This document shows, one piece after another, positions 1 to 50,359 of a stretch of DNA of 64,000 nucleotides; the stretch's first letter is position 1, and each line of letters starts with the position of its first letter. The position numbers and the translations under genes were made by a program. Under the pieces are notes generated by a model, which saw nothing but the letters and a program-made list of their open reading frames with translations, did no database searches and was not told where the DNA came from. The DNA lies in NCBI GenBank assembly GCA_041649575.1, contig JBAZMW010000001.1, positions 154,711-218,710 on the forward strand, written 5' to 3'. This DNA is from Patescibacteria group bacterium. Lineage in GTDB: Bacteria; Patescibacteriota; Patescibacteriia; 2-01-FULL-39-33.

Positions 1-2004
1 CGTGAAGCTGGAGTTGGTGGCTCCGCTTATTGCCACGCCGTCCTTCTTCCACTGATACGAGAGCGGCGTCGTGCCCGAGGCCACAACCGTGAACGTAACC
101 AGCGATCCAATACTGGCCGTCTGTGATACCGGTTGCGTGGTGATCGTCGGGGCGACCGCTGTCGATTCGATTGTCAGTGTAGCCACATTGGACGTTGCTG
201 TTCCAGCGGCGTTTTTCACGACACAGCGATAGGCGCCTTCGTTGATCGCACCTGCCGACAGAATAGTGAGCGCGGAGCTCTTCACACCTATCGAAGCGCT
301 GTTCTCTGCGATGTCAACGCCGTTCATCTGCCATTGGTATGACAGCGGCGCTGTGCCCGTAGCCGTGACACTGAAGGTGGCCGACGCACCCAGGTCCACA
401 GTAAGCGAGTCTGGCTGTTTGGTGATCGTCGGGGCGACGGCTGTCGACGCTAGCGTCAGCGTTGCCACGTTCGACGTTGCTGTTCCAGCGGCGTTCTTCA
501 CGATACAGCGGTAGGCGCCAGCATTCACTGTGCCAACTGACAAGATTGTAAGAGTCGGACTCTTTATTCCCGTAGACGCGCTGTTCTCGGGAATGTCCAC
601 TCCGTTGTCTTGCCATTGGTATGACAGTGGCGCTGTGCCGGTGGCCGTGACACTGAAGATCGCCTGTTCGCCGACGTTTACCGTCAGTGAATCCGGCTGT
701 TTGGTGATCGCCGGGCTGATGGCTTCTCCTGCGGCCATGGCCACGTCGATTTTGTAGTAGCCGAGTCCTTGCCCGCTGGAGCCGGTCTCCTCGTGGAGTT
801 CGGTTCCGCCACTCACGCCGATGCCTTGCACTGTGCCGTTCTCGGCGGCATCGACCCGCCAGAGTTTGACCCAGTAGAAATGGTCGGAGTTCGGGTGTTT
901 GGCTGCGAGTCGTAGCTCGATCTGTTCGGCGCCGGCCATGTTCTGTTGCCAGACACCTTTGAGATTGATCACGGCCGGCGTACCATACTCCCAGTCGGGT
1001 GGTGGTACTGGCAGGATGATGCCGCCAGTATCGTTCGGGTACGCGCAAACCATCGCGCAGAGTCCGCTCGGAGACTGGTCATCGGGCCATCCGATGAAGC
1101 AGTTCCTCAGATCCCAGTGGTGTACATCGCAGTACACCGAGAGTTCGTCGCTGGTGTTGACGACGTTCAAGGTGACAATCGCGCTGTCGTCTTGCCAGGG
1201 GATTTCGCCCTCTCCTTCGCCTTCGCCTTCTCCTTCTCCGGCGTGATGGTTGGGATGGTCGTCCGGATTCAGTGGGTCGGTACCGGCATTGATTTCTTCG
1301 CGGTCCGTGTAGCCGTCTCCATCCGTGTCGGATCCGTACTGACCATACGGCAGGGTACCATAGAAGCATTCCTGCCAGTTGGGTACGCCATCGCTGTCCG
1401 GATCGCCTAGGGACCCGTTTTCGCCCGCCGGATCGTGCGGATCCAGCGAGTTTAGTGACTCCCAGAAATTGGGCATGCCGTCGCCGTCGGTATCGTCCAG
1501 TTCCGGAGCTTGCCGCCGGATGAAGATCGTGATCACAGAGTCGTGTCCGTTTAGTTTAACGGATAGGTCGACTCTGATCGACTTCGCCGCCGGGCTTGGT
1601 GGTACCGTTACCTCCCACTGCGTGCCGTCTCCTTCGATGTGGGGCGGGTCACTGGGAACACCAAATGGTTTACCCACCTCATTGAGATAGAGTCCATCGG
1701 TGATGCCACTGGCTTTGCCGCAGTCAAGCGGGAAGTCGACCCACTGGCCTTGCATTTCGGGCAGGGAAATCTCATACGAAACCGTCCCGCCCCTGGCGCA
1801 GTCGAAGTGGGCGCCGTCGATCTTGATCTTGGCCCCGTGTGAAATAACCACTCCAGGGTTGGCAACCTCGACAATTCCGATTTGCTGTCCGGTCTCGCCG
1901 AAGGTCGTCACCAGGATCGACATCTCTCTTTTTTCGGGGCATCCTACGAACAGAAGCCCCATGGCCAACGTAACTGCCACGCACATACTCACTCTCGTCT
2001 TCAT
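1..2004 (-). CDS. Secreted/lipoprotein-like surface protein (partial; C-terminus runs off the left edge). N-terminal domain has DxDxDG TSP3-like Ca-binding repeats, followed by at least three tandem Ig-like (I-set type) domains.
   Basis: I translated the reverse complement by hand from ATG 2004..2002 with no stops to position 1. It reads MKTRVSMCVAVTLAMGLLFVGC (signal peptide), then DTDGDGMPNFW / DPDSDGVPNW / DTDGDGYTD repeats and a GEGEGEGE run. Three ~90-aa repeats (VAPTITKQPDSLTV...TGTAPLSYQWQ.NGVDI...AYRC.VKNAAGTATS) show up in the DNA as ~270-bp tandem repeats. RBS AAAGGAGGcaacATG. About 60% GC. The provided ORF track omits it because no stop falls in the window. Confidence 0.75.
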   Translation of the reverse strand, partial: MKTRVSMCVAVTLAMGLLFVGCPEKREMSILVTTFGETGQQIGIVEVANPGVVISHGAKIKIDGAHFDCARGGTVSYEISLPEMQGQWVDFPLDCGKASGITDGLYLNEVGKPFGVPSDPPHIEGDGTQWEVTVPPSPAAKSIRVDLSVKLNGHDSVITIFIRRQAPELDDTDGDGMPNFWESLNSLDPHDPAGENGSLGDPDSDGVPNWQECFYGTLPYGQYGSDTDGDGYTDREEINAGTDPLNPDDHPNHHAGEGEGEGEGEGEIPWQDDSAIVTLNVVNTSDELSVYCDVHHWDLRNCFIGWPDDQSPSGLCAMVCAYPNDTGGIILPVPPPDWEYGTPAVINLKGVWQQNMAGAEQIELRLAAKHPNSDHFYWVKLWRVDAAENGTVQGIGVSGGTELHEETGSSGQGLGYYKIDVAMAAGEAISPAITKQPDSLTVNVGEQAIFSVTATGTAPLSYQWQDNGVDIPENSASTGIKSPTLTILSVGTVNAGAYRCIVKNAAGTATSNVATLTLASTAVAPTITKQPDSLTVDLGASATFSVTATGTAPLSYQWQMNGVDIAENSASIGVKSSALTILSAGAINEGAYRCVVKNAAGTATSNVATLTIESTAVAPTITTQPVSQTASIGSLVTFTVVASGTTPLSYQWKKDGVAISGATNSSFT

Positions 2005-2097
2005 GTTGCCTCCTTTGCCCTTGAGGGCTGTCTGTGTTGGTCGCCCTCGGGGCAACCGTCTTCACTATGTGACACTCCATTACAACACTCTTACTTG

Positions 2098-2118
2098 CAA
2101 ACGAACAACGCGGTTGTT
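2098..2118. promoter_or_regulatory. Perfect 9-bp inverted repeat (ACGAACAAC-gcg-GTTGTTCGT) upstream of the Ig-like gene; possible operator
   Basis: Palindrome read directly, about 95 bp upstream of the minus-strand start at 2004. Confidence 0.3.
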
Positions 2119-2264
2119 CGTTTTCCTTCTTTGTTTCAAAGGACTGCCGACCACGAGTTCCATGGTCGCTTAAACTGGCCTAAGTCAAAAGAAAGACCGA
2201 CCAAGTTTAATATATTATTTTAGCAAGATTATATTTTTTTGTCAAGATCTAAAAAATTTTTTAA

Positions 2265-10850: not shown

Positions 10851-11049
10851 CGCTTTTCTTTTCTAGAAAAGAAAAGCGCACGCAAAAGAAAAGTCGCGAG
10901 CTAACATGAAAAATTTTGCGTTTCAGACAAAATTCTAACAAAATTTTTAAATTCCCCGCTCAGGCGCTGACGCGCTGAGCGGGTCAAACAGTAAAAATTT
11001 AGTAACGAATTTTGCCTTCACTTTTTTCAAAATTTTTCATAGGCTCGCA
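10851..11049. mobile_element. MITE-like dispersed repeat, copy 1. A 28-bp perfect palindrome CGCTTTTCTTTTCTAGAAAAGAAAAGCG (10851-10878) is followed by a ~155-bp element with imperfect terminal inverted repeats (GCGAGCTAACATGAAAAATTTT ... AAAATTTTTCATAGGCTCGC).
   Basis: About 75-80% identical to 61235..61413. Copy 1 carries an extra internal hairpin (CCGCTCAGGCGCTGACGCGCTGAGCGG). Confidence 0.55.
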
Positions 11050-11074
11050 TTGGGTAACTATCAAAAACAATTGT

Positions 11075-12205
11075 ATGAAGTATTTAGAATTAAGGAATAG
11101 GATTGAAAATTTTACCAAGTATCCAAAAACTCAAAAGATCTCTCGCTCCCTCATTGTTAACAAGGGATTTCATGGTAATTTTAATATTAGTTTTGGCGAA
11201 GCGCCGTTCCTTGAAAAGTTTGGAAATTATTTGGACAATTCAGAAGCGTATAATTTTTCCACCATTCAGCAAGTTATAAGGGTAAATGATTTTAGAGACG
11301 ACTTGGACTCAACACATCTCTTACTGTTTGATATGGCAGATGTTTCTGGTTTTATTGGTGGAAAAAATGTTTCAGATGATGAAAGAAAAAATATTGCCAG
11401 TTTTACCATCAGAAAAACATTTGAGTTTTTAATTAATGAGTTGAAACTAAAGCCGGAACGTTTCAAGATTTCGTATTTGACCGGAGGAAATGTTGAAGTA
11501 TTGACAGCTGGAAAATATAAATTTGATAAATATGTTGAAGGCGACTCTTTTATAAAAACTGCAAAAGAATTTGGTATTTGTGATGAACAATTTATCCCCG
11601 ACCAGACAAGAACAACTCTGCTAGCATTGAATTTTCAGCCACCAGTTTGTTGGGGTTATCGCAATGAAATTTTATATCAAACTGACAGCCCGAGCGAATT
11701 ATTAGATATTGCTTCTATCGAAAACTTACTTTGGCGGCCGGTGTTTAAAAATGGAATCATAGCCGATCTGGCTAGATGGGAAAATTTTTGGTCTTTTCAG
11801 GTTGTGGGTGTAGAAAGGTTATTAATGCTGATAAATAATTCGGACAAAGTTTATGCGGCTGATCATATTATGCCACTTATCACTAAATTTTCAGAAGTGA
11901 CAAATAGTTTGGATATCCATGTTTGCCGTATTACAATGGAGCTGCTACGAGTTTTCCATAGAATTGTAGCTGATATGGAAGGTTTTTCAATATTGTCCAG
12001 CTCGAGAAAAGAAAAGCTCATACCATATCGTAGAAAATTTTTACAAAATTGTGAAAAATTAGGCTTTGACTATAAAACAAATTTAAAAGAATTATTGACT
12101 CTTAACGGCAAATTGCAGCCATGTTATCCTGAACTCCTTTCGGGCACTGAAGCTAAAACTAATAAAATAATAGAATGGTTGAGAAAAGGAAAGATATATA
12201 CTTAA
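11075..12205 (+). CDS. Hypothetical protein (377 aa) inserted between mraY and murD
   Basis: Host-like AT-rich ORF. I placed the start at ATG 11075 because the track's upstream extension overlaps the repeat element. No recognisable motif. Confidence 0.45.
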   Translation: MKYLELRNRIENFTKYPKTQKISRSLIVNKGFHGNFNISFGEAPFLEKFGNYLDNSEAYNFSTIQQVIRVNDFRDDLDSTHLLLFDMADVSGFIGGKNVSDDERKNIASFTIRKTFEFLINELKLKPERFKISYLTGGNVEVLTAGKYKFDKYVEGDSFIKTAKEFGICDEQFIPDQTRTTLLALNFQPPVCWGYRNEILYQTDSPSELLDIASIENLLWRPVFKNGIIADLARWENFWSFQVVGVERLLMLINNSDKVYAADHIMPLITKFSEVTNSLDIHVCRITMELLRVFHRIVADMEGFSILSSSRKEKLIPYRRKFLQNCEKLGFDYKTNLKELLTLNGKLQPCYPELLSGTEAKTNKIIEWLRKGKIYT

Positions 12206-13611
12206 AAAATAAAAAAGTGACAGTCATGGGGCTGGGTTTATATGAAAATGGTAGCGGAATTTCGGCTACCCGTTTTTTGGTGGAGCAGGGCGCTCGGGTG
12301 ACAGTGACCGATTTAAAGACCAGGGAACAACTGACTGATCAGGTAAAGCGACTGGGGTCGTTGGCTAGGAAAATAAAATTTGTTTTAGGTGAACATCGAG
12401 AGGAGGATTTTAAAAATATTGATTTACTTGTAAAAAATCCAGGCGTGCCCAACATTTCAAAATATTTGCGAATCGCTCGAGAAAATAAGATTCCCATTGA
12501 GACGGATATCTCTTTGTTTTTTAAGCTGGTGCCGCGAGAAAGAATTATTGGCATCACCGGCACGCGCGGTAAAAGCACCACCACCAGTTTGATCTATGAA
12601 ATAGTAAAACTGGCCGACAAAAACGCGGTTTTGGGCGGCAATATCACCAAGTCGCCGCTGGCGCAGATGATGGAAGTAAAAAAGGGAGGCATGGTAGTGC
12701 TGGAGTTGTCTTCTTGGATGCTGGAAAGCTTAGAACCGCACAAAATGAGTCCGCAGCTGGCCATTTTTACCAATATTTACCCAGATCATTTAAATACTTA
12801 CAAAAATATTGCCGAGTACGCGGCAGCCAAAGAAAATATTTTCCAGTGGCAGAACAAAGATGATTTAGTGGTGCTAAACCGCGATAATAGCTGGACCAGA
12901 AAAATGGGCGCTAAAGTTCCAGGCAAAAGGTTTTGGTTTTCCAAAAAATATTTTGCGGCAGAAAACGGAGTTTATTTGAAAGGAAAAGATGTCTATTTTC
13001 GGCTCGCTGGCGAGGAAATAAAAGTCTTAAAAAAAGATGACATTCAAATTCTCGGTGAACATAATTTGGAAAATGTTTTGGCGGCGGTAGCCGCCGCTAT
13101 GGCCTGGGGAATCAGGCCGGAAACTGTCAGGCGAGGTGTAAAAAGCTTCAAAGGCATTAGCGATCGGCTGGAATTTTTGAGAGAAATAAAAGGGGTAAAA
13201 TATTATAATGATACCACCTCGACCACGCCAGAAGCGACGATGGCGGCCCTAAGGGCCTTAAGTTTAAAACCAAAAAGTAAAAGCTTAAAAGAAAAAAATA
13301 TTATTTTGATAGGTGGAGGGTCGGATAAAGGGTTGAATTTTAAAGAATTGGCCAGGGAGATAAGAGATAGAGTAAAAAATTTAGTTTTATTAAGGGGAAG
13401 TGGCAGTGAAAGACTGGCTAAAGAATTTTTAGCTTTAAGTTTTAAGTTTTCAGTTGTTGGCTCTATGGCTGATGCGGTTGGTTTGGCTAAAAGTTTTGCC
13501 AAGAGGGGAGATATTGTTTTGCTTTCTCCCGCCTGCGCTTCTTTTGGCATGTTTAATAATGAGCTTGATCGTGGCGCGCAGTTTAGGATGATAGTTAGGA
13601 AGTTAAAGTGA
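12175..13611 (+). CDS. murD: UDP-N-acetylmuramoylalanine--D-glutamate ligase MurD
   Basis: KKVTVMGLGL N-terminus, P-loop GITGTRGKSTTTSLIYEI, Mur ligase C-terminal region. Confidence 0.85.
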   Translation: MVEKRKDIYLKNKKVTVMGLGLYENGSGISATRFLVEQGARVTVTDLKTREQLTDQVKRLGSLARKIKFVLGEHREEDFKNIDLLVKNPGVPNISKYLRIARENKIPIETDISLFFKLVPRERIIGITGTRGKSTTTSLIYEIVKLADKNAVLGGNITKSPLAQMMEVKKGGMVVLELSSWMLESLEPHKMSPQLAIFTNIYPDHLNTYKNIAEYAAAKENIFQWQNKDDLVVLNRDNSWTRKMGAKVPGKRFWFSKKYFAAENGVYLKGKDVYFRLAGEEIKVLKKDDIQILGEHNLENVLAAVAAAMAWGIRPETVRRGVKSFKGISDRLEFLREIKGVKYYNDTTSTTPEATMAALRALSLKPKSKSLKEKNIILIGGGSDKGLNFKELAREIRDRVKNLVLLRGSGSERLAKEFLALSFKFSVVGSMADAVGLAKSFAKRGDIVLLSPACASFGMFNNELDRGAQFRMIVRKLK

Positions 13612-13629
13612 TGGCTTCGGCGAGGCAGG

Positions 13630-13712
13630 CCCGCCTGCGCCAGTTTTGGCATGTTCAATAATGAGTTCGACCGAGGCGCGCAGTTTAGGATGATAATTGG
13701 TAAATTAAAATA
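13630..13712 (+). repeat. Tandem GC-shifted duplicate of the murD 3' end, encoding ACASFGMFNNEFDRGAQFRMIIGKLK* (murD itself ends ACASFGMFNNELDRGAQFRMIVRKLK*)
   Basis: Direct comparison of 13530-13611 with 13630-13712: the same peptide with mostly synonymous, GC-increasing substitutions. The spurious minus-strand ORF 13203..13736 shows the same duplication. Confidence 0.7.
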
Positions 13713-13736
13713 AAAAAAATACGGCGGCGAGGACAC

Positions 13737-14100
13737 TTGCGTATCACTCGCCGCGCTCTAGGTCACGGACTGCGTTCACGATTGACCCCACGGACATGGG
13801 ATCGTGCTCCTGGGGGGCCGTCCCACAAAGCACGGCGGTTACCGGGGGCCGCGCGTCGCGTCCGCGACTGCACAGAGGCCTTTATGGAAGGCCCGGCGTC
13901 CGCGGTCTACGTCCGCAGGACGTGTCGCCGGTGCCCGTCGATGGCCGCGCCCGTCGCGCTTGTGCTCGGAAACAGATTCGAATTCGATATGGACAATGCG
14001 AGATGGGTGCCTTTTCGGTGCTGAATGTGCATAGTGCGTGTTCCTCCTTGTTTGTTCCATTGAACCTCTTCCAGATTGAAACTATGTAAGGCCATATTAG
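13737..14100. other. GC-rich (about 65%) structured ~360-bp islet of unknown nature between murD and ftsW; candidate ncRNA or foreign remnant. Best ORF candidate is a 41-aa minus-strand ORF (14032..13907) with SD AAGGAGG.
   Basis: Many stable hairpins (GCGGCGAG..CTCGCCGC; GGCCTTtatggAAGGCC; GTCGCGtccGCGAC). Every longer ORF is Arg-rich, i.e. non-coding-like. Confidence 0.3.
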
Positions 14101-14224
14101 CATATTAGTAAATTTTTGTCAATAATTAATTAAATAAAAAAATAAAAAATATTAATTTTTTGTTTAAATTTAGACAAAAATAATTGTTCGAAAATTATTA
14201 AAATAAATAGCCAAAGATCAAATC

Positions 14225-15370
14225 ATGAAAATAAAGGTCAGGGAATTATTAAGAGAAATCATAAAAGGCAAAAAAGATCAGCCGCCGGATTGGTATTTGG
14301 TGGGGCTGATTGTCTTTTTGACGGTTTTTGGCCTGATTATGCTGTCATCGGCCGGAGCGGCCGTTGGCTGGCAGAAATTCGGCGACAGTTACTGGCACGT
14401 TAAACACCAAATTCTTTTCGGCTTATTGCCGGGACTGGTTTTGTTTTTTATTTTTTCGCGGCTGGATTATCACCGACTGAAAAGCCTGGCCTCGCCCATG
14501 CTTTTTATTTCTTTGATTTTATTAGTTTTGGTGTTTGTGCCTGGCATTGGCGCCAGCTGGGGCACCTCAAAAAGCTGGATCAATTTTTTTGGTTTTTCGC
14601 TCCAGCCGTCAGAAATCGTCAAGCTCACTTATTTGATTTATCTGGTTTCTTGGCTGGCGGCCAAGGAAGAAAGACATTTAAAAAACTTGCAGCAGGGTTT
14701 TTTGCCGTTTTTGTTTGTTTTGGGTATAATCACCATTCTGATGGTTTTGCAACCGGACACGGGCACCATGCTGATCATTGTTCTGACTTCGCTGATCGTT
14801 TATTTTGTGGCGGGCGGCAGTTTTTGGCACCTGTCGTGGCTGTCGGCGGTAGGTTTGGGCGGGCTGGCTTTGATTATCAAGATTTCTCCTTACCGCGCGG
14901 CGCGGCTGACGACCTTTTTGCATCCCGAGCTCGACCCGCAAGGCATCGGTTATCATATTAATCAGGCGCTCTTGGCGGTTGGCTCGGGTGGCTGGCTGGG
15001 CCGTGGGTTTGGCCATTCGCGGCAAAAGTTCGCTTACTTGCCGGAGGTGGCCGGCGATTCTGTTTTTGCCATTTTGGCGGAAGAACTGGGATTTTTCATC
15101 TCGGCGGCCGTGGTGGCGCTTTTCGTTTTTCTGGCTTTGAGAGTTTTGAAAATGGCCAAAAATTGCCGTGATCCGTTTGGCTCGCTCTTGGCGGTGGGAA
15201 TTATCGTCTGGTTTGTCATTCAGGCTTTCTTGAACATAGGAGCGATTATCGGCGTTCTGCCGCTGACCGGCGTGCCTTTGCCTTTTATTTCTTATGGCGG
15301 CACTTCGCTGATGATTTGCTTGGCCGCTTCGGGAATTTTGGTTAATATTTCAAGGCACAATAATAATTAA
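14225..15370 (+). CDS. ftsW: SEDS-family peptidoglycan glycosyltransferase FtsW/RodA
   Basis: 10-TM protein with conserved SEDS C-terminus (PLTGVPLPFISYGGTS); dcw context. Confidence 0.85.
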   Translation: MKIKVRELLREIIKGKKDQPPDWYLVGLIVFLTVFGLIMLSSAGAAVGWQKFGDSYWHVKHQILFGLLPGLVLFFIFSRLDYHRLKSLASPMLFISLILLVLVFVPGIGASWGTSKSWINFFGFSLQPSEIVKLTYLIYLVSWLAAKEERHLKNLQQGFLPFLFVLGIITILMVLQPDTGTMLIIVLTSLIVYFVAGGSFWHLSWLSAVGLGGLALIIKISPYRAARLTTFLHPELDPQGIGYHINQALLAVGSGGWLGRGFGHSRQKFAYLPEVAGDSVFAILAEELGFFISAAVVALFVFLALRVLKMAKNCRDPFGSLLAVGIIVWFVIQAFLNIGAIIGVLPLTGVPLPFISYGGTSLMICLAASGILVNISRHNNN

Positions 15371-23793: not shown

Positions 23794-24162
23794 ATGTTAC
23801 TGGACTGCGGGGCTTATCTCGAATTACCGGGCAATCTTCAGCGTGAGCTGGCTAGGCCACTGGCCGAGCTCAATCAGGAGCTCGGAAATCTCTGGCAGCG
23901 AGTAGGCGCCCTGGAAGAAGGACAAGGGGACTACCGAGCACTCGCCCAGGAAGTCTTTGAACAGCTTCTGGCCGAGGTCAAGATGTGGGTCAGAGGCATC
24001 GCCGCGCGGGAAGTATTGGACAGCGGCAGGCAGGCCGAACTTGCCAGGGCAGCCCGCAACTTCCAACTGCGGGTGATCGAGGCGGTTTATACTCTGGGGA
24101 TAGAGTTTTCCTCTACCGTGCTGGTGGAAGAACCATCGGCGGCAGCAGCGGTTGTCGGCTGA
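23794..24162 (+). CDS. GC-rich islet ORF, 122-aa predicted alpha-helical protein of unknown function
   Basis: SD cAAGGAGGatctggccATG; about 58% GC against the ~38% host; followed by a rho-independent terminator. Confidence 0.5.
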   Translation: MLLDCGAYLELPGNLQRELARPLAELNQELGNLWQRVGALEEGQGDYRALAQEVFEQLLAEVKMWVRGIAAREVLDSGRQAELARAARNFQLRVIEAVYTLGIEFSSTVLVEEPSAAAAVVG

Positions 24163-42277: not shown

Positions 42278-42325
42278 GACAAATTTAATACCGGAAAGTC
42301 GCTGGCGCAACCTTCCAGTATAGTG
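42278..42325. repeat. Direct repeat copy 1 (TTTAGACAAATTTAATACCGGARRGTCGCTKGCGCAACCYYCCRGTAT), hairpin-containing, immediately 3' of the minus-strand 122-aa gene
   Basis: Differs from 42782..42829 at 5 positions. Contains inverted TACCGG..CCGGTA arms and a TTGCGCAA palindrome. Confidence 0.7.
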
Positions 42326-42348
42326 TTTACCGTGCATTATAATCCAGC

Positions 42349-42717
42349 TCACTCTACTTGAGCATTGATTTCTGCTGTAATGCCGGAGTACAACTTGTGG
42401 CGTTCCGGCCCCACGATAAATGAGAGAGCGACAAACCCCAGTACAGTTTTATTATGTTTGTATCGAATGTTCCGGCAAAGCCTTTTCATGATGCCATGTA
42501 AGTACACTGGGTGAGAGCGAATCAAGGCACGGCGAGTGCGTGGGTCCTGCCATTCTTTCAACACCTCCCATGCTTTTTGTTCGTCGTATTTTTGACTTTC
42601 TTGTAATGCCTGGCGTAATTCGTCCGCATAGTCGCGGCGAAAGTTGTCGATCTCTGCGATCGACAAGACTATTGGCACCCCATCATCCATTTCCCCGTTT
42701 CCACTTTCCGTTCCCAT
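42349..42717 (-). CDS. GC-rich island gene 1, 122-aa hypothetical protein
   Basis: SD AGGAGGGatcgtcATG; about 57% GC; no recognisable motif. Confidence 0.55.
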   Translation of the reverse strand: MGTESGNGEMDDGVPIVLSIAEIDNFRRDYADELRQALQESQKYDEQKAWEVLKEWQDPRTRRALIRSHPVYLHGIMKRLCRNIRYKHNKTVLGFVALSFIVGPERHKLYSGITAEINAQVE

Positions 42718-42781
42718 GACGATCCCTCCTGTTGTAGGTACTGTTTTTAGTCTATCAGATGGTTTTAAAATAGTAAAATTT

Positions 42782-42829
42782 ATATTTAGACAAATTTAAT
42801 ACCGGAGGGTCGCTTGCGCAACCTCCCGG
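42782..42829. repeat. Direct repeat copy 2, immediately 3' of the minus-strand 475-aa gene
   Basis: See copy 1. Preceded on the gene side by a second small hairpin ATCGCCgtcaGGCGAT. Confidence 0.7.
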
Positions 42830-42858
42830 TATGTTGATGTACGATCGCCTGACGGCGA

Positions 42859-44286
42859 TTAGTTGAGAGCGACTGCCTCCTGCCTGCCCTCGGTGCTCAG
42901 GACCACATGGTCCTCCTCGAGCCTTAGCACGGCGATGGCGGCGCTGCCCGCGCTCTCATAGGCGTGGTTCTCGTAGATCAGCCGCGGCTCCTGGCCCGGC
43001 ACCATGACATAGAGCTCATAGCGTAGTTGCGGGTCGGCGATGCGGTGATCGATCTGCTCCTCGGCCACGAAGACCGCCAGGCCCAGTCGCGCGCTTATGA
43101 TCCTGTGCCGTACCGACGGCGTGCGGTAGGACACTTGGCCGGGAGTCCCCATCGGCATCTGTATGACTACGCCGTACTTCTGATCCCCGTAGTCTTGGTA
43201 CATCTTTGGCTTCAGGCGCCAAGATGCCATCTTTTGCGCCAGGATCTGGGCGATCGCCGCGTCCACCTCGCCCTCAAAGGCGGCCTGCTCGGTCTCGTTG
43301 AGCTTGGGCGGACTCGGAGTCGCTTCAGTCGGCTCGAAGACAAACTCGGCGATGCGGTTGCCGTACTCCTCGTTGACGAGTTCGACGGTGATTTTCACCT
43401 GGCCGCCCCTTTCGTCAATTTGGATTTGCCCCAGGTCGTTGATGCACAAATCGTGCCGGTCGGCGCTACTGCTGTAGCGGTTGCGCCACTGCCATTCTTG
43501 CATCTGGTCTCGGCCGTGGTGGTAGATCACCACTTGATCGAAGTAGCCGATGCCGCCACTGCCACCCCACTCGCTTCGGGCTACCAGAAACACGGCCGTG
43601 TCGGGATCGAGCACCCTGACCTTCCCGATACTGCACCGCTCCATCTTCATCAACTCCTCAATGAACAACCGGAGCCGTGCCGACACTTCTTGCCCGCCGA
43701 GTACCTCGGCCAATGCCTCCTCATGACTCAACCGCGAGTCATCCTCCAGCAATGCTTTGACGCTGGCGGCGGCTTCGGCCAGCTCTTCCCGCTTCTGCTG
43801 GATTTGGCTGGCAAACTCTTCGCCACCGAGAAGAGCCAGCGCTTGGTGTGCGTCGGAGTAGGATTGCCGCCCGATCTCGTAAGTTTCCCGCGGGAAGTTG
43901 TCGGGGGGGAGCTCTTGTACCAAACTCCTGATGCCCAACTCATCGGTCAGGGCCAGGAACTTTTCCGTGAGCTTTCTTTCACAGCAACCACAACCATTCA
44001 TGGTCGGGTCGATTGCACTGAAGGCCTCGGCGATCGCCAGCCGGACCAGGGGATCGGGCTGGGCATTGATGGCCTTGACGATCCGCCCCCGTTCCTCGGC
44101 CGGCAATTCGCGGAGGCGTTGCACATACTTCCCGCCGCGCTGGCCATCGGCCATGGTCACAGGGATGCCGGTGACCTGCTGGGCAACTTGTAGGCAGACA
44201 GACAATTCCAACTGCCGCAGTTGTCGGCCAATCTCTTCCTCCACTTTCCGCGCTTCTTTCAGCGCTCTTTCTCTTTCCTTGTTCAT
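42859..44286 (-). CDS. GC-rich island gene 2, 475-aa hypothetical protein (no recognisable domain)
   Basis: SD GGAGGAGacaacaATG at 44286. The track's longer 509-aa version overlaps the upstream gene. Coiled-coil-like N-terminus (MNKERERALKEARKVEEEIGRQLRQL), a CGCC cluster, C-terminal beta-rich half. The antisense 388-aa ORF is Arg/Gly-rich and rejected. Confidence 0.6.
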   Translation of the reverse strand: MNKERERALKEARKVEEEIGRQLRQLELSVCLQVAQQVTGIPVTMADGQRGGKYVQRLRELPAEERGRIVKAINAQPDPLVRLAIAEAFSAIDPTMNGCGCCERKLTEKFLALTDELGIRSLVQELPPDNFPRETYEIGRQSYSDAHQALALLGGEEFASQIQQKREELAEAAASVKALLEDDSRLSHEEALAEVLGGQEVSARLRLFIEELMKMERCSIGKVRVLDPDTAVFLVARSEWGGSGGIGYFDQVVIYHHGRDQMQEWQWRNRYSSSADRHDLCINDLGQIQIDERGGQVKITVELVNEEYGNRIAEFVFEPTEATPSPPKLNETEQAAFEGEVDAAIAQILAQKMASWRLKPKMYQDYGDQKYGVVIQMPMGTPGQVSYRTPSVRHRIISARLGLAVFVAEEQIDHRIADPQLRYELYVMVPGQEPRLIYENHAYESAGSAAIAVLRLEEDHVVLSTEGRQEAVALN

Positions 44287-44308
44287 TGTTGTCTCCTCCG
44301 TTCGTCGC

Positions 44309-44606
44309 CTAGTGCGCGAACGCGTTGAGAAACTTTGCCAGCTCCCTCGGCTCTTTCTTGGAATGCCGAAGGAATCTGACGCACGCACCCACTAACTCTG
44401 CTCCGAAATTCTCTTCCCGGCAGGCGATAGCGTACCACCTGGCTGCCAGCGCCTTTTTGCGTTTGCCGGTCCTGGCTAGGACCAGATTATACGCCTTGGA
44501 AGGACTGGTAGCAGACTCGGTGAGGTTGAGCAGTTCGGGTACGGCCCAAACCGCCTTGGCGCGTGCCAATAACTCGATCAGACGCTTGACGTCTTTTGGT
44601 GTCATG
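44309..44606 (-). CDS. GC-rich island gene 3, 98-aa basic helical protein (possible small regulator/partner)
   Basis: SD AGGAAAGGAGcaagccATG; 20-bp gap to gene 2; a probable operon with it. Confidence 0.5.
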
Positions 44607-44773
44607 GCTTGCTCCTTTCCTCTGTAAGGTGCTATCAAGCTGATTGCCAGCTTAACTAATAATTATATCATATTATAACATAATTGTCAATGGTATTTTG
44701 TTATTTTATTTAAATTTAGCCAAAAATAATAAGTATTTTTGCCAAAAGTAGCAATTTGAATTAAAATATAGTT

Positions 44774-50098: not shown

Positions 50099-50359
50099 AT
50101 GATTACGACCGTGACCCTGACAAAGCCTTTACAGGTGGCGGATTTTTCCGGCAGTGACTGGAAGTTTCGGACTCTGCCACAAGGAGAGTACCAGGTGGAG
50201 GATGTGGCCAATCCCTTGGGTCTGGCAGGCGAAGACGATCATTGGCTGGTGCTGGCAGGCACCCAGGAAGGCATGAGAGAAAGCGTCTGGCGACGGCACT
50301 GCTGCAGGGGGCAGAAGCGGAGCTGGCTAAAGACTTTGCCAGAGCCGTGTCCGGCGTAG
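50099..50359 (+). CDS. GC-rich islet ORF, 86-aa hypothetical protein
   Basis: SD GGAAGGAGGaaacaccATG; about 56% GC; followed by an imperfect hairpin and T-run at 50375-50428. Confidence 0.45.
   Translation: MITTVTLTKPLQVADFSGSDWKFRTLPQGEYQVEDVANPLGLAGEDDHWLVLAGTQEGMRESVWRRHCCRGQKRSWLKTLPEPCPA

Follow-up and report, generated by a model that had tools for sequence, protein, structure and literature searches.

A GC-rich minus-strand unit between murD and ftsW in a Patescibacteria genome as a possible lineage-specific orphan gene

We analysed a GC-rich element between murD and ftsW in a 64,000-nt stretch of DNA (the window, meaning the whole stretch) whose host genome belongs to the Patescibacteria, or Candidate Phyla Radiation (CPR), and is related to Candidatus Buchananbacteria. 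The GC-rich feature is real and sharply bounded. It has the anatomy of a minus-strand gene, with a promoter, a Shine-Dalgarno (SD) site, a 41-codon open reading frame (ORF) and a terminator; it belongs by design to a class of SD-led GC-rich genes in the window, and units of the same design recur in relatives. With about even confidence, we read the unit as an autonomous, lineage-specific orphan gene made of the 41-codon ORF and a GC-rich tail. An orphan gene is preferred over a demonstrable new structured RNA because the unit has no family match and its folding is ordinary. An earlier reading of the letters and their ORFs (the sequence-only reading) had picked out the interval 13737-14100 as a discrete element; the element is indeed a self-contained unit, but the true unit is wider, spanning 13712-14122 on the minus strand.

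The GC peak of the entire 64-kb window, 74.7% in the 150 nt from 13809, falls within this unit, against a window mean of 45%. GC content was 69.5% over 13720-13965, 63% over 13720-14060 and 59.9% over 13737-14100, such that the GC-rich island stood as the maximum of the window, but not at the value of about 65% first assigned to the last of these intervals. Likewise, the flanking spacers, described as 30-35% GC, measured 19% on the ftsW side and 46% on the murD side, the latter because a relic of the murD end sits in that spacer. ORFs of 60 aa or more are present in five of the six frames of the island. All are Arg-rich and look non-coding, as had been claimed, and a Pfam search of six ORFs in these five frames returned no credible match (single sub-threshold match, E = 0.023).

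The promoter of the unit (coordinates of all features are collected in Table 1) agrees with the sigma-70 consensus at 10 of 12 positions and carries the TG of an extended -10 element; for the pattern TTGACA-N13-15-TGNTANNNT, 0.07 occurrences would be expected in the window and six are present. An SD sequence, AAGGAGG, lies inside the predicted leader at 14049-14043, 10 nt ahead of the ATG at 14032, which is a functional spacing for the ribosome binding site of a small-ORF gene. We scored folding as the z of minimum free energy against dinucleotide shuffles. The leader fold is ordinary (z = -0.93), and the terminator hairpin is exceptional (-24.2 kcal/mol; z = -4.9; 0 of 200 shuffles equally stable). 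The terminator adjoins the stop codon of the relic murD end, and a terminator beside the murD-end stop is also found in relatives L004, L007, L003, L162 and L092. Sigma-70 promoter and intrinsic terminator thus bracket the element on one strand, as in an independent transcription unit, and these signals suggest that the GC-rich unit is transcribed from the minus strand.

We then considered the ORF and the GC-rich sequence that follows it. The source gene caller had annotated a longer version of the ORF, of 62 aa. Using a codon-usage model trained on seven unambiguous GC-rich genes from the window, the 41-codon frame ranked top of six, although weakly (-0.10 bits per codon). Read from its sequence, the peptide is basic and polar with no hydrophobic segment, and searches for homologues and against Pfam, PHROG and PADLOC matched nothing. 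A type I toxin, tried as a candidate, was rejected on the lack of a hydrophobic segment in MHIQHRKGTHLALSISNSNLFPSTSATGAAIDGHRRHVLRT and of a PADLOC match. In the tail (13766-13906) the same model prefers no reading frame, and GC by codon position (0.72/0.72/0.64) is not coding-like, unlike that of intact genes. The 41-aa ORF had been called the only one preceded by an SD site; it is present and is the only credible ORF, but a second SD-like site, weaker than AAGGAGG, precedes a 17-aa ORF whose stop falls in the 5' arm of the terminator. The 41-codon ORF is predicted to be translated.

The SD site sets this unit apart from most of its neighbours. Upstream of crudely called window genes, an SD-like motif of even 4 nt was found in only 3 of 45 cases, and it was absent ahead of all 24 dcw-region genes that were called independently in relatives. 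In contrast, a consensus SD-ATG stands at the GC-rich (0.48-0.61) orphan ORFs starting at 2003 (leftward), 23794, 25632, 42717, 44286, 44605, 50099 and 63583, and likewise at 14032. In this class the SD lies 4-10 nt ahead of the ATG, and no Pfam or PHROG match was found for its members. Intrinsic terminators end the genes at 23794, 42349 and 42859 (those 3' ends examined), and the promoters at 2245 and 44690 are of the same extended -10 type as that at 14122. Moreover, the motif GTCTAAATTTAAAC, allowing up to two mismatches, occurs seven times in the window versus 0.99 expected, with four of the matches upstream of minus-strand SD-led GC-rich units (promoters 2245, 14122 and 44690, and gene 42717). 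In L162, L004 and L007 a similar motif is found near ftsW, 27-28 nt ahead of the -35 hexamer, and GTCTAAATTTAAAC may be an operator or UP-like element. Judged by translation start signal, the window genes are of two classes, SD-less core genes and SD-led GC-rich orphans, and the unit at 14032 is the smallest and most GC-rich of the recognisable SD-led class.

Table 1. Features of the GC-rich unit, its surroundings and the SD-led genes of the window
Feature	Position in window (nt)	Strand	Remarks
Gene order at the locus			mraY, orphan ORF, murD, GC-rich unit, ftsW, murG, murC
Live murD end	13528-13611	+	
Relic of the last 27 murD codons and stop	13630-13713	+	borders the unit, not part of it
Intrinsic terminator	13712-13756	-	hairpin 13756-13721, then U8 at 13719-13712
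17-aa ORF	13797-13744	-	within the tail; SD-like AGGAG 9 nt ahead of ATG
Untranslated 3' tail	13757-13906	-	about 150 nt, about 70% GC
41-codon ORF, MHIQHRKGTHLALSISNSNLFPSTSATGAAIDGHRRHVLRT	13907-14032	-	SD-led; TAG stop
Predicted 5' leader	14033-14087	-	about 55 nt; start placed about 7 nt past the -10
Sigma-70 promoter, TTGACAAAAATTTACTAATATGCTAATAT	14094-14122	-	TTGACA, 17-nt spacer, TAATAT, TG extension
Near-palindromic motif GTCTAAATTTAAAC	14162-14175	-	38 nt upstream of the -35 hexamer
ftsW	14225-15370		
GTCTAAATTTAAAC / TCTAAATTTAGA sites	2302-2315; 14162-14175; 42778-42791; 44708-44721		27-70 nt upstream of the -35
Lipoprotein with immunoglobulin (Ig)-like repeats	ATG at 2003, runs leftward off the window	-	
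SD-led orphan genes	23794-24162; 25632-25210; 50099-50359; 63583-63239		
Three-gene island	44605-42349	-	98, 475 and 122 aa

Evidence from relatives came from related loci numbered L001 onwards. The murD-ftsW gap in these loci is mostly 0-70 bp, exceeding 120 bp in 19 of the 98 loci that have both genes, and several of these 19 are one genome held in two collections. Minus-strand units of the same design were found at the same place in L001, L003, L004, L007, L008, L092, L162, L163 (two tandem paralogues), L165 and L170, in relatives whose FtsW is about 66-75% identical (at least 66%), and in L164 the promoter is seen at the contig end. No unit was found at this junction in L002, L005, L006, L010, L081, L167 or L168. 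A promoter of the same type, with position and orientation relative to ftsW unchanged, is present upstream of that gene in L162, L163, L164, L001, L004, L007, L008 and L170. Each of the 12 units in relatives lies between ftsW and murD (or what replaces murD) and is read from the minus strand. Of these 12, 9 have an SD-ATG ORF of 10 aa or longer, whereas 300 rounds of shuffling gave 0.84 on average and never more than 3, and the antisense strand gave one. At the level of sequence, the units have little in common: all-against-all blastn paired only L163A with L163B and L008 with L170, alignment of the window unit with those of L004, L007 and L003 matched only the promoter and the T-run, and a k-mer search across the units recovered only the SD and T-run motifs.

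If the unit is an orphan gene, its extended -10 promoter, lying back to back with the ftsW upstream region, would launch, near 14087, a transcript of about 375 nt. Past the leader (about 55 nt), AAGGAGG and ATG would open the 41-codon ORF and yield a small, basic, non-hydrophobic peptide. An untranslated tail of about 150 nt and 70% GC would follow, and the hairpin with its U8 would halt transcription just before the murD end. The GC-rich tail could form a stable 3' end, which would slow decay from that side, and it might also have a regulatory part as RNA, as in dual-function small RNAs; such roles, like the biological function of the unit as a whole, are putative.

Several observations weigh against the orphan-gene reading. 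The 41-aa peptide is without a homologue in the searches run, the codon-usage score of its ORF is negative with a narrow lead over the other frames, and the 150-nt, 70%-GC tail is far longer and GC-richer than the 3' ends of the other SD-led genes. The short ORFs of the syntenic units (13-59 aa) are unrelated to one another in sequence and length when compared all against all, and the L008 and L170 units have no short ORF and resemble a hairpin non-coding RNA (ncRNA), with 3-4 compensatory pairs between these two sequences only. In addition, a part of the Parcubacteria is reported to have no anti-SD sequence in 16S rRNA and often no bS21 (PMC9297842), and the 16S gene of this genome lies outside the window, so that use of the SD by its ribosomes is putative.

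Individual relatives show further features at this junction. The L008 (3735-3942, minus strand) and L170 (1270-1462, minus strand) units are RNA-like, about 200 nt long and 73% identical, with an extended -10 promoter, a long hairpin and a terminator. This unit has no Rfam match at gathering thresholds, nor in the case of L170 any at E ≤ 10, and it is a candidate ncRNA of Buchananbacteria. The 59-aa product of L092 looks like a real small protein, and a by-eye likeness of the L003 short ORF to bS21 was dropped, since Pfam was empty at E ≤ 1. L163 (1615-2440, minus strand) holds tandem paralogous units with a common promoter and last ~60 nt and differing middles; there, the interval from mraY to ftsW contains a DUF488 gene and further small genes in place of murD. 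In L001 (1786-3900), the closest large-gap relative, a 455-aa gene, which by eye we take to encode a metallo-beta-lactamase-fold, RNase J-like protein, is inserted after murD and followed by a minus-strand unit of about 600 nt (50-63% GC; fold z = -3.7). A raiA-hairpin match in this L001 unit (E = 0.087), the sole near-miss of the scans for known RNAs, was below threshold and lies outside the window. Lastly, in L167 (1-1490), a locus of another Patescibacteria genome from the same sample, the gene immediately upstream of ftsW, 10 bp away, encodes a MurL-type Mur ligase of 840 aa that includes an epimerase domain (Pfam MurL_N, MurL_epimerase_C and Mur_ligase_M).

Homology searches of the element gave uniformly negative results within their scope. 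The 95-aa plus frame had no HMMER match among 1.84 billion representative proteins, the 110-aa minus frame, with its stop masked, matched only itself (its own 62-aa gene call) among 5.8 billion proteins, and tblastn of two further frames against plasmids found nothing; two frames of the island were left out of the largest protein libraries. The expectation that no protein match would be found thus held for the frames searched, and a protein relic, for which these frames gave no credible Pfam match and no HMMER or tblastn match beyond the minus frame itself, was rejected. At the nucleotide level, blastn of the element against phages and plasmids and a search for exact 24-31-mers in viral contigs found none, and the core had no homologue by blastn or nhmmer among 170 loci (169 relatives and the source contig; the searches were run on the related loci fetched to that point, 170 by the end). 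No strain closer than 75% FtsW identity was found among the 5.8 billion proteins.

We weighed two rival accounts of the same minus-strand signals. The unit could be a non-coding RNA of about 375 nt with a regulatory or structural role, its SD-ATG being incidental, ribosome-binding or protective and its GC-rich part a functional structured domain, which we consider unlikely. Structured RNA genes in AT-rich spacers classically stand out by their high GC, which GC-based intergenic screens exploit, and the island has this property together with its own strong promoter and terminator and a tail that lacks coding signal. The syntenic L008/L170 unit also lacks a short ORF and keeps its long hairpin through compensatory changes, and the units of L163A, L163B, L001, L008 and L170 fold below shuffles at z = -3.2 to -3.9. 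However, coding controls reach similar z, which means that z cannot part coding from non-coding, and the SD-ATG-ORF is about tenfold over chance across the units. In the window unit itself, z was -1.9 (minus) and -2.5 (plus) for the whole 379 nt and -2.2 for the 155-nt 3' tail alone, but the body without the terminator gave -0.37, no steadier than shuffles and short of what folding energy would show for a generic novel ncRNA, leaving the terminator hairpin as the sole outlier. The hairpin density noted earlier is therefore not above composition. Known RNAs, including RNase P, transfer-messenger RNA (tmRNA), signal recognition particle (SRP) RNA and 6S, were ruled out by empty scans: Rfam 15 gave nothing within the element at gathering thresholds and three chance-level matches at E ≤ 10 (E ≥ 6; eukaryotic or Burkholderia families, all unrelated), ARAGORN found no tRNA or tmRNA gene in 13000-14800, and both tools found none of these or other known RNAs in the window and 18 related loci. 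The earlier failure to match RNase P, tmRNA or SRP consensus blocks was thus borne out. The novel structured RNA that had been proposed found no backing, as stability does not exceed composition, the design is common to protein-coding GC-rich orphan genes of the same genome, and the core has no homologue from which covariation could be read; a literature search for structured ncRNAs in Patescibacteria intergenic regions gave no paper. Also improbable, in our estimate, is that the unit is what is left of a longer accessory gene, SD-led and GC-rich, whose coding body is decaying while its promoter, SD and terminator survive. The candidate is an 89-codon minus frame from 14032 to a TGA at 13763, open but for the TAG at 13909-13907, which past that TAG closes 7 nt before the terminator hairpin; its design matches the intact GC-rich SD-led genes of 86-475 aa, and neither a conservation nor a structure signal is seen. 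On the other hand, no frame of the tail retains a codon bias, its GC1/GC2/GC3 pattern is unlike that of intact genes, its GC content (~70%) is above the 52-61% of the intact SD-led class, and a 47-codon open stretch at 70% GC is expected by chance about 40% of the time, as estimated from base composition. Small CPR genomes usually purge dead DNA, and a short ORF with a long tail recurs in relatives, making independent wrecks unlikely. We keep the orphan gene as the preferred reading.

Two further accounts look beyond the minus strand or beyond the lineage. A plus-strand cis element in a murD-ftsW read-through mRNA, such as a structured leader or a processing site for ftsW, fits the plus-strand fold, and murD transcripts could read through because the A-run followed by a hairpin at 13712-13756 is no plus-strand terminator. 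Yet every promoter, SD and terminator signal belongs to the minus strand, the Rfam scan matched no riboswitch or leader family, and most relatives, with their two genes 0-70 bp apart, have nothing comparable; we regard such an element as very improbable. Similarly remote is an origin as foreign DNA: a high-GC donor or a mobile element would have supplied it, and its insertion would have left the doubled murD 3' end as an att-like scar. GC content is extreme for this genome, and the two copies of the murD end differ mainly synonymously, so that one would come from a diverged allele. The duplication that had been reported is certainly there (13528-13607 versus 13630-13709, 85% identity), but the copies do not flank the unit, since both lie on one side of it, 102 nt apart start to start. 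The idea of a relic of the element that duplicated the murD end hence finds no support, the duplication being a separate recombination scar. Flanking direct repeats, an integrase or recombinase ORF, terminal inverted repeats and another copy of the unit were all sought in the window without success; a mobile element or miniature inverted-repeat transposable element (MITE) was rejected on the lack of a second copy and of flanking inverted repeats. The lack of phage, plasmid, viral-contig and protein matches described above also counts against a foreign origin, and the decayed foreign gene first suggested gained no support, with three frames lacking homologues in large collections and a tail that prefers no coding frame.

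The murD-end duplication was informative in its own right. Relative to the live end, the relic shows about 10 synonymous-type changes, three conservative replacements and a TCT/AGT serine switch, with frame and stop kept. The relic carries the clade consensus NEFDRG where the live murD has NELDRG, and the lineage-specific AQFRM is present in both. These mostly synonymous changes, the kept frame and stop, and the NEFDRG and AQFRM motifs argue that both copies evolved under selection in closely related lineages, and that the donor was a close relative and not a high-GC organism. We infer from the sequence that murD was probably replaced by a sister-lineage allele with one illegitimate junction, as opposed to a neutral in-place duplication. 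An 8-nt match, CGGCGAGG, follows each stop codon (left unaligned by MAFFT), which hints that the duplicated piece may have reached into the terminator arm of the unit; if it did, the unit predates the duplication, again contrary to insertion of foreign DNA.

The layout of the unit resembles known systems only in part. As in dual-function small RNAs (sRNAs; Staphylococcus RNAIII/hld, E. coli SgrS/SgrT and Bacillus SR1/SR1P, whose layout is general knowledge), a unit of a few hundred nucleotides with its own promoter and terminator opens with an SD-led short ORF followed by a long, hairpin-rich untranslated part; here the likeness is one of layout, homology being absent in both sequence and structure, with no target or base-pairing region apparent, a putative translation of the ORF, and a tail no more stable than its composition predicts. 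Bacterial orphan microprotein genes share the short ORF with a canonical ribosome binding site, the own promoter and terminator, the lineage restriction and the lack of a family, but not the unusually long GC-rich 3' tail or a host whose core genes lack an SD. The SD-led genes of the window share elevated GC and a consensus SD, and some also the extended -10 promoter and GTCTAAATTTAAAC; unlike the unit, with its 41 codons and GC-richer non-coding tail, they encode clear proteins of 86 to 475 aa or more with coding codon bias. High-GC intergenic ncRNA candidates that came out of GC-versus-length screens of AT-rich genomes, and large Rfam ncRNAs (RNase P, tmRNA, 6S, raiA, ROOL, GOLLD and HEARO) have in common with it a GC island in an AT-rich spacer and own promoter and terminator, but the unit has no Rfam match at E ≤ 10, no tmRNA gene, no excess stability and no conserved homologues. 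Lastly, a small SD-led ORF in a few-hundred-nucleotide RNA between core genes recalls type I toxin-antitoxin systems, whereas the 41-aa peptide is polar and basic without a hydrophobic helix, and no overlapping antisense RNA gene is evident.

The locus itself appears sound. Among 5.8 billion proteins, FtsW had an exact match followed by a runner-up at 75% identity, and in a genome collection the closest proteins from metagenome-assembled genomes were at most 76% identical. ENA contig k141_2274303 (ERZ27247363) carries the exact locus and is identical to the window across 6146 nt. The 62-aa ORF product is recorded in JGI, Logan and ENA, and FtsW in those and NCBI. Because both products are known from several public sources and this FtsW occurs on three contigs, we consider an assembly artefact improbable. 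Between mraY and murD lies a 397-aa orphan ORF (11012-12205, plus strand; GC 0.34) that overlaps the murD start by 31 nt; in L162 and L168, murD stands directly 3' of mraY without an intervening orphan ORF. This ORF may have come in with the replaced murD allele.

Other members of the SD-led class were observed in their own right. At the left end of the window (1-2245, minus strand), the window edge truncates a large SD-led, GC-rich gene, which for that reason is absent from the ORF list. It has an extended -10 promoter at 2245-2217 and starts with the ATG at 2003; its product opens with a lipoprotein signal (…LFVGC), after which come Asp-rich repeats of calcium-binding-like type and repeated Ig-like modules. 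The three-gene island (42280-44690, minus strand; GC ~0.6) has its own extended -10 promoter and SD sites and gave no Pfam or PHROG match, with one marginal PADLOC match (E = 0.005), and its 475-aa protein has homologues only in a few other Patescibacteria. Two near-identical terminator-plus-motif repeats (…ggttgcgcNagcgac…ccggtattaaatttgtctaaa) lie near 42780-42830 and 42280-42320.

By itself, an orphan small gene would carry modest weight, and its context, the split in SD use and the recurrent slot beside ftsW, is more notable. A broader reading, which we offer as quite doubtful, is that Buchananbacteria-like Patescibacteria carry, clade-wide, fast-evolving and strongly expressed short-ORF/RNA genes at a fixed spot and orientation upstream of ftsW, co-regulated with the GC-rich genes through a TCTAAATTTAGA-like motif and translated from SD sites where core genes are not. 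If true, an accessory or surface gene set would in effect have a translation-initiation regime of its own, with a logic like that of SD-dependent bS21 control in Bacteroidia. If these units and the SD-led genes are expressed, they would help to show how Patescibacteria divide translation start signals among gene classes, and the lineage-specific set to which they point, which includes a surface lipoprotein, may matter for the symbiotic lifestyle of these bacteria.

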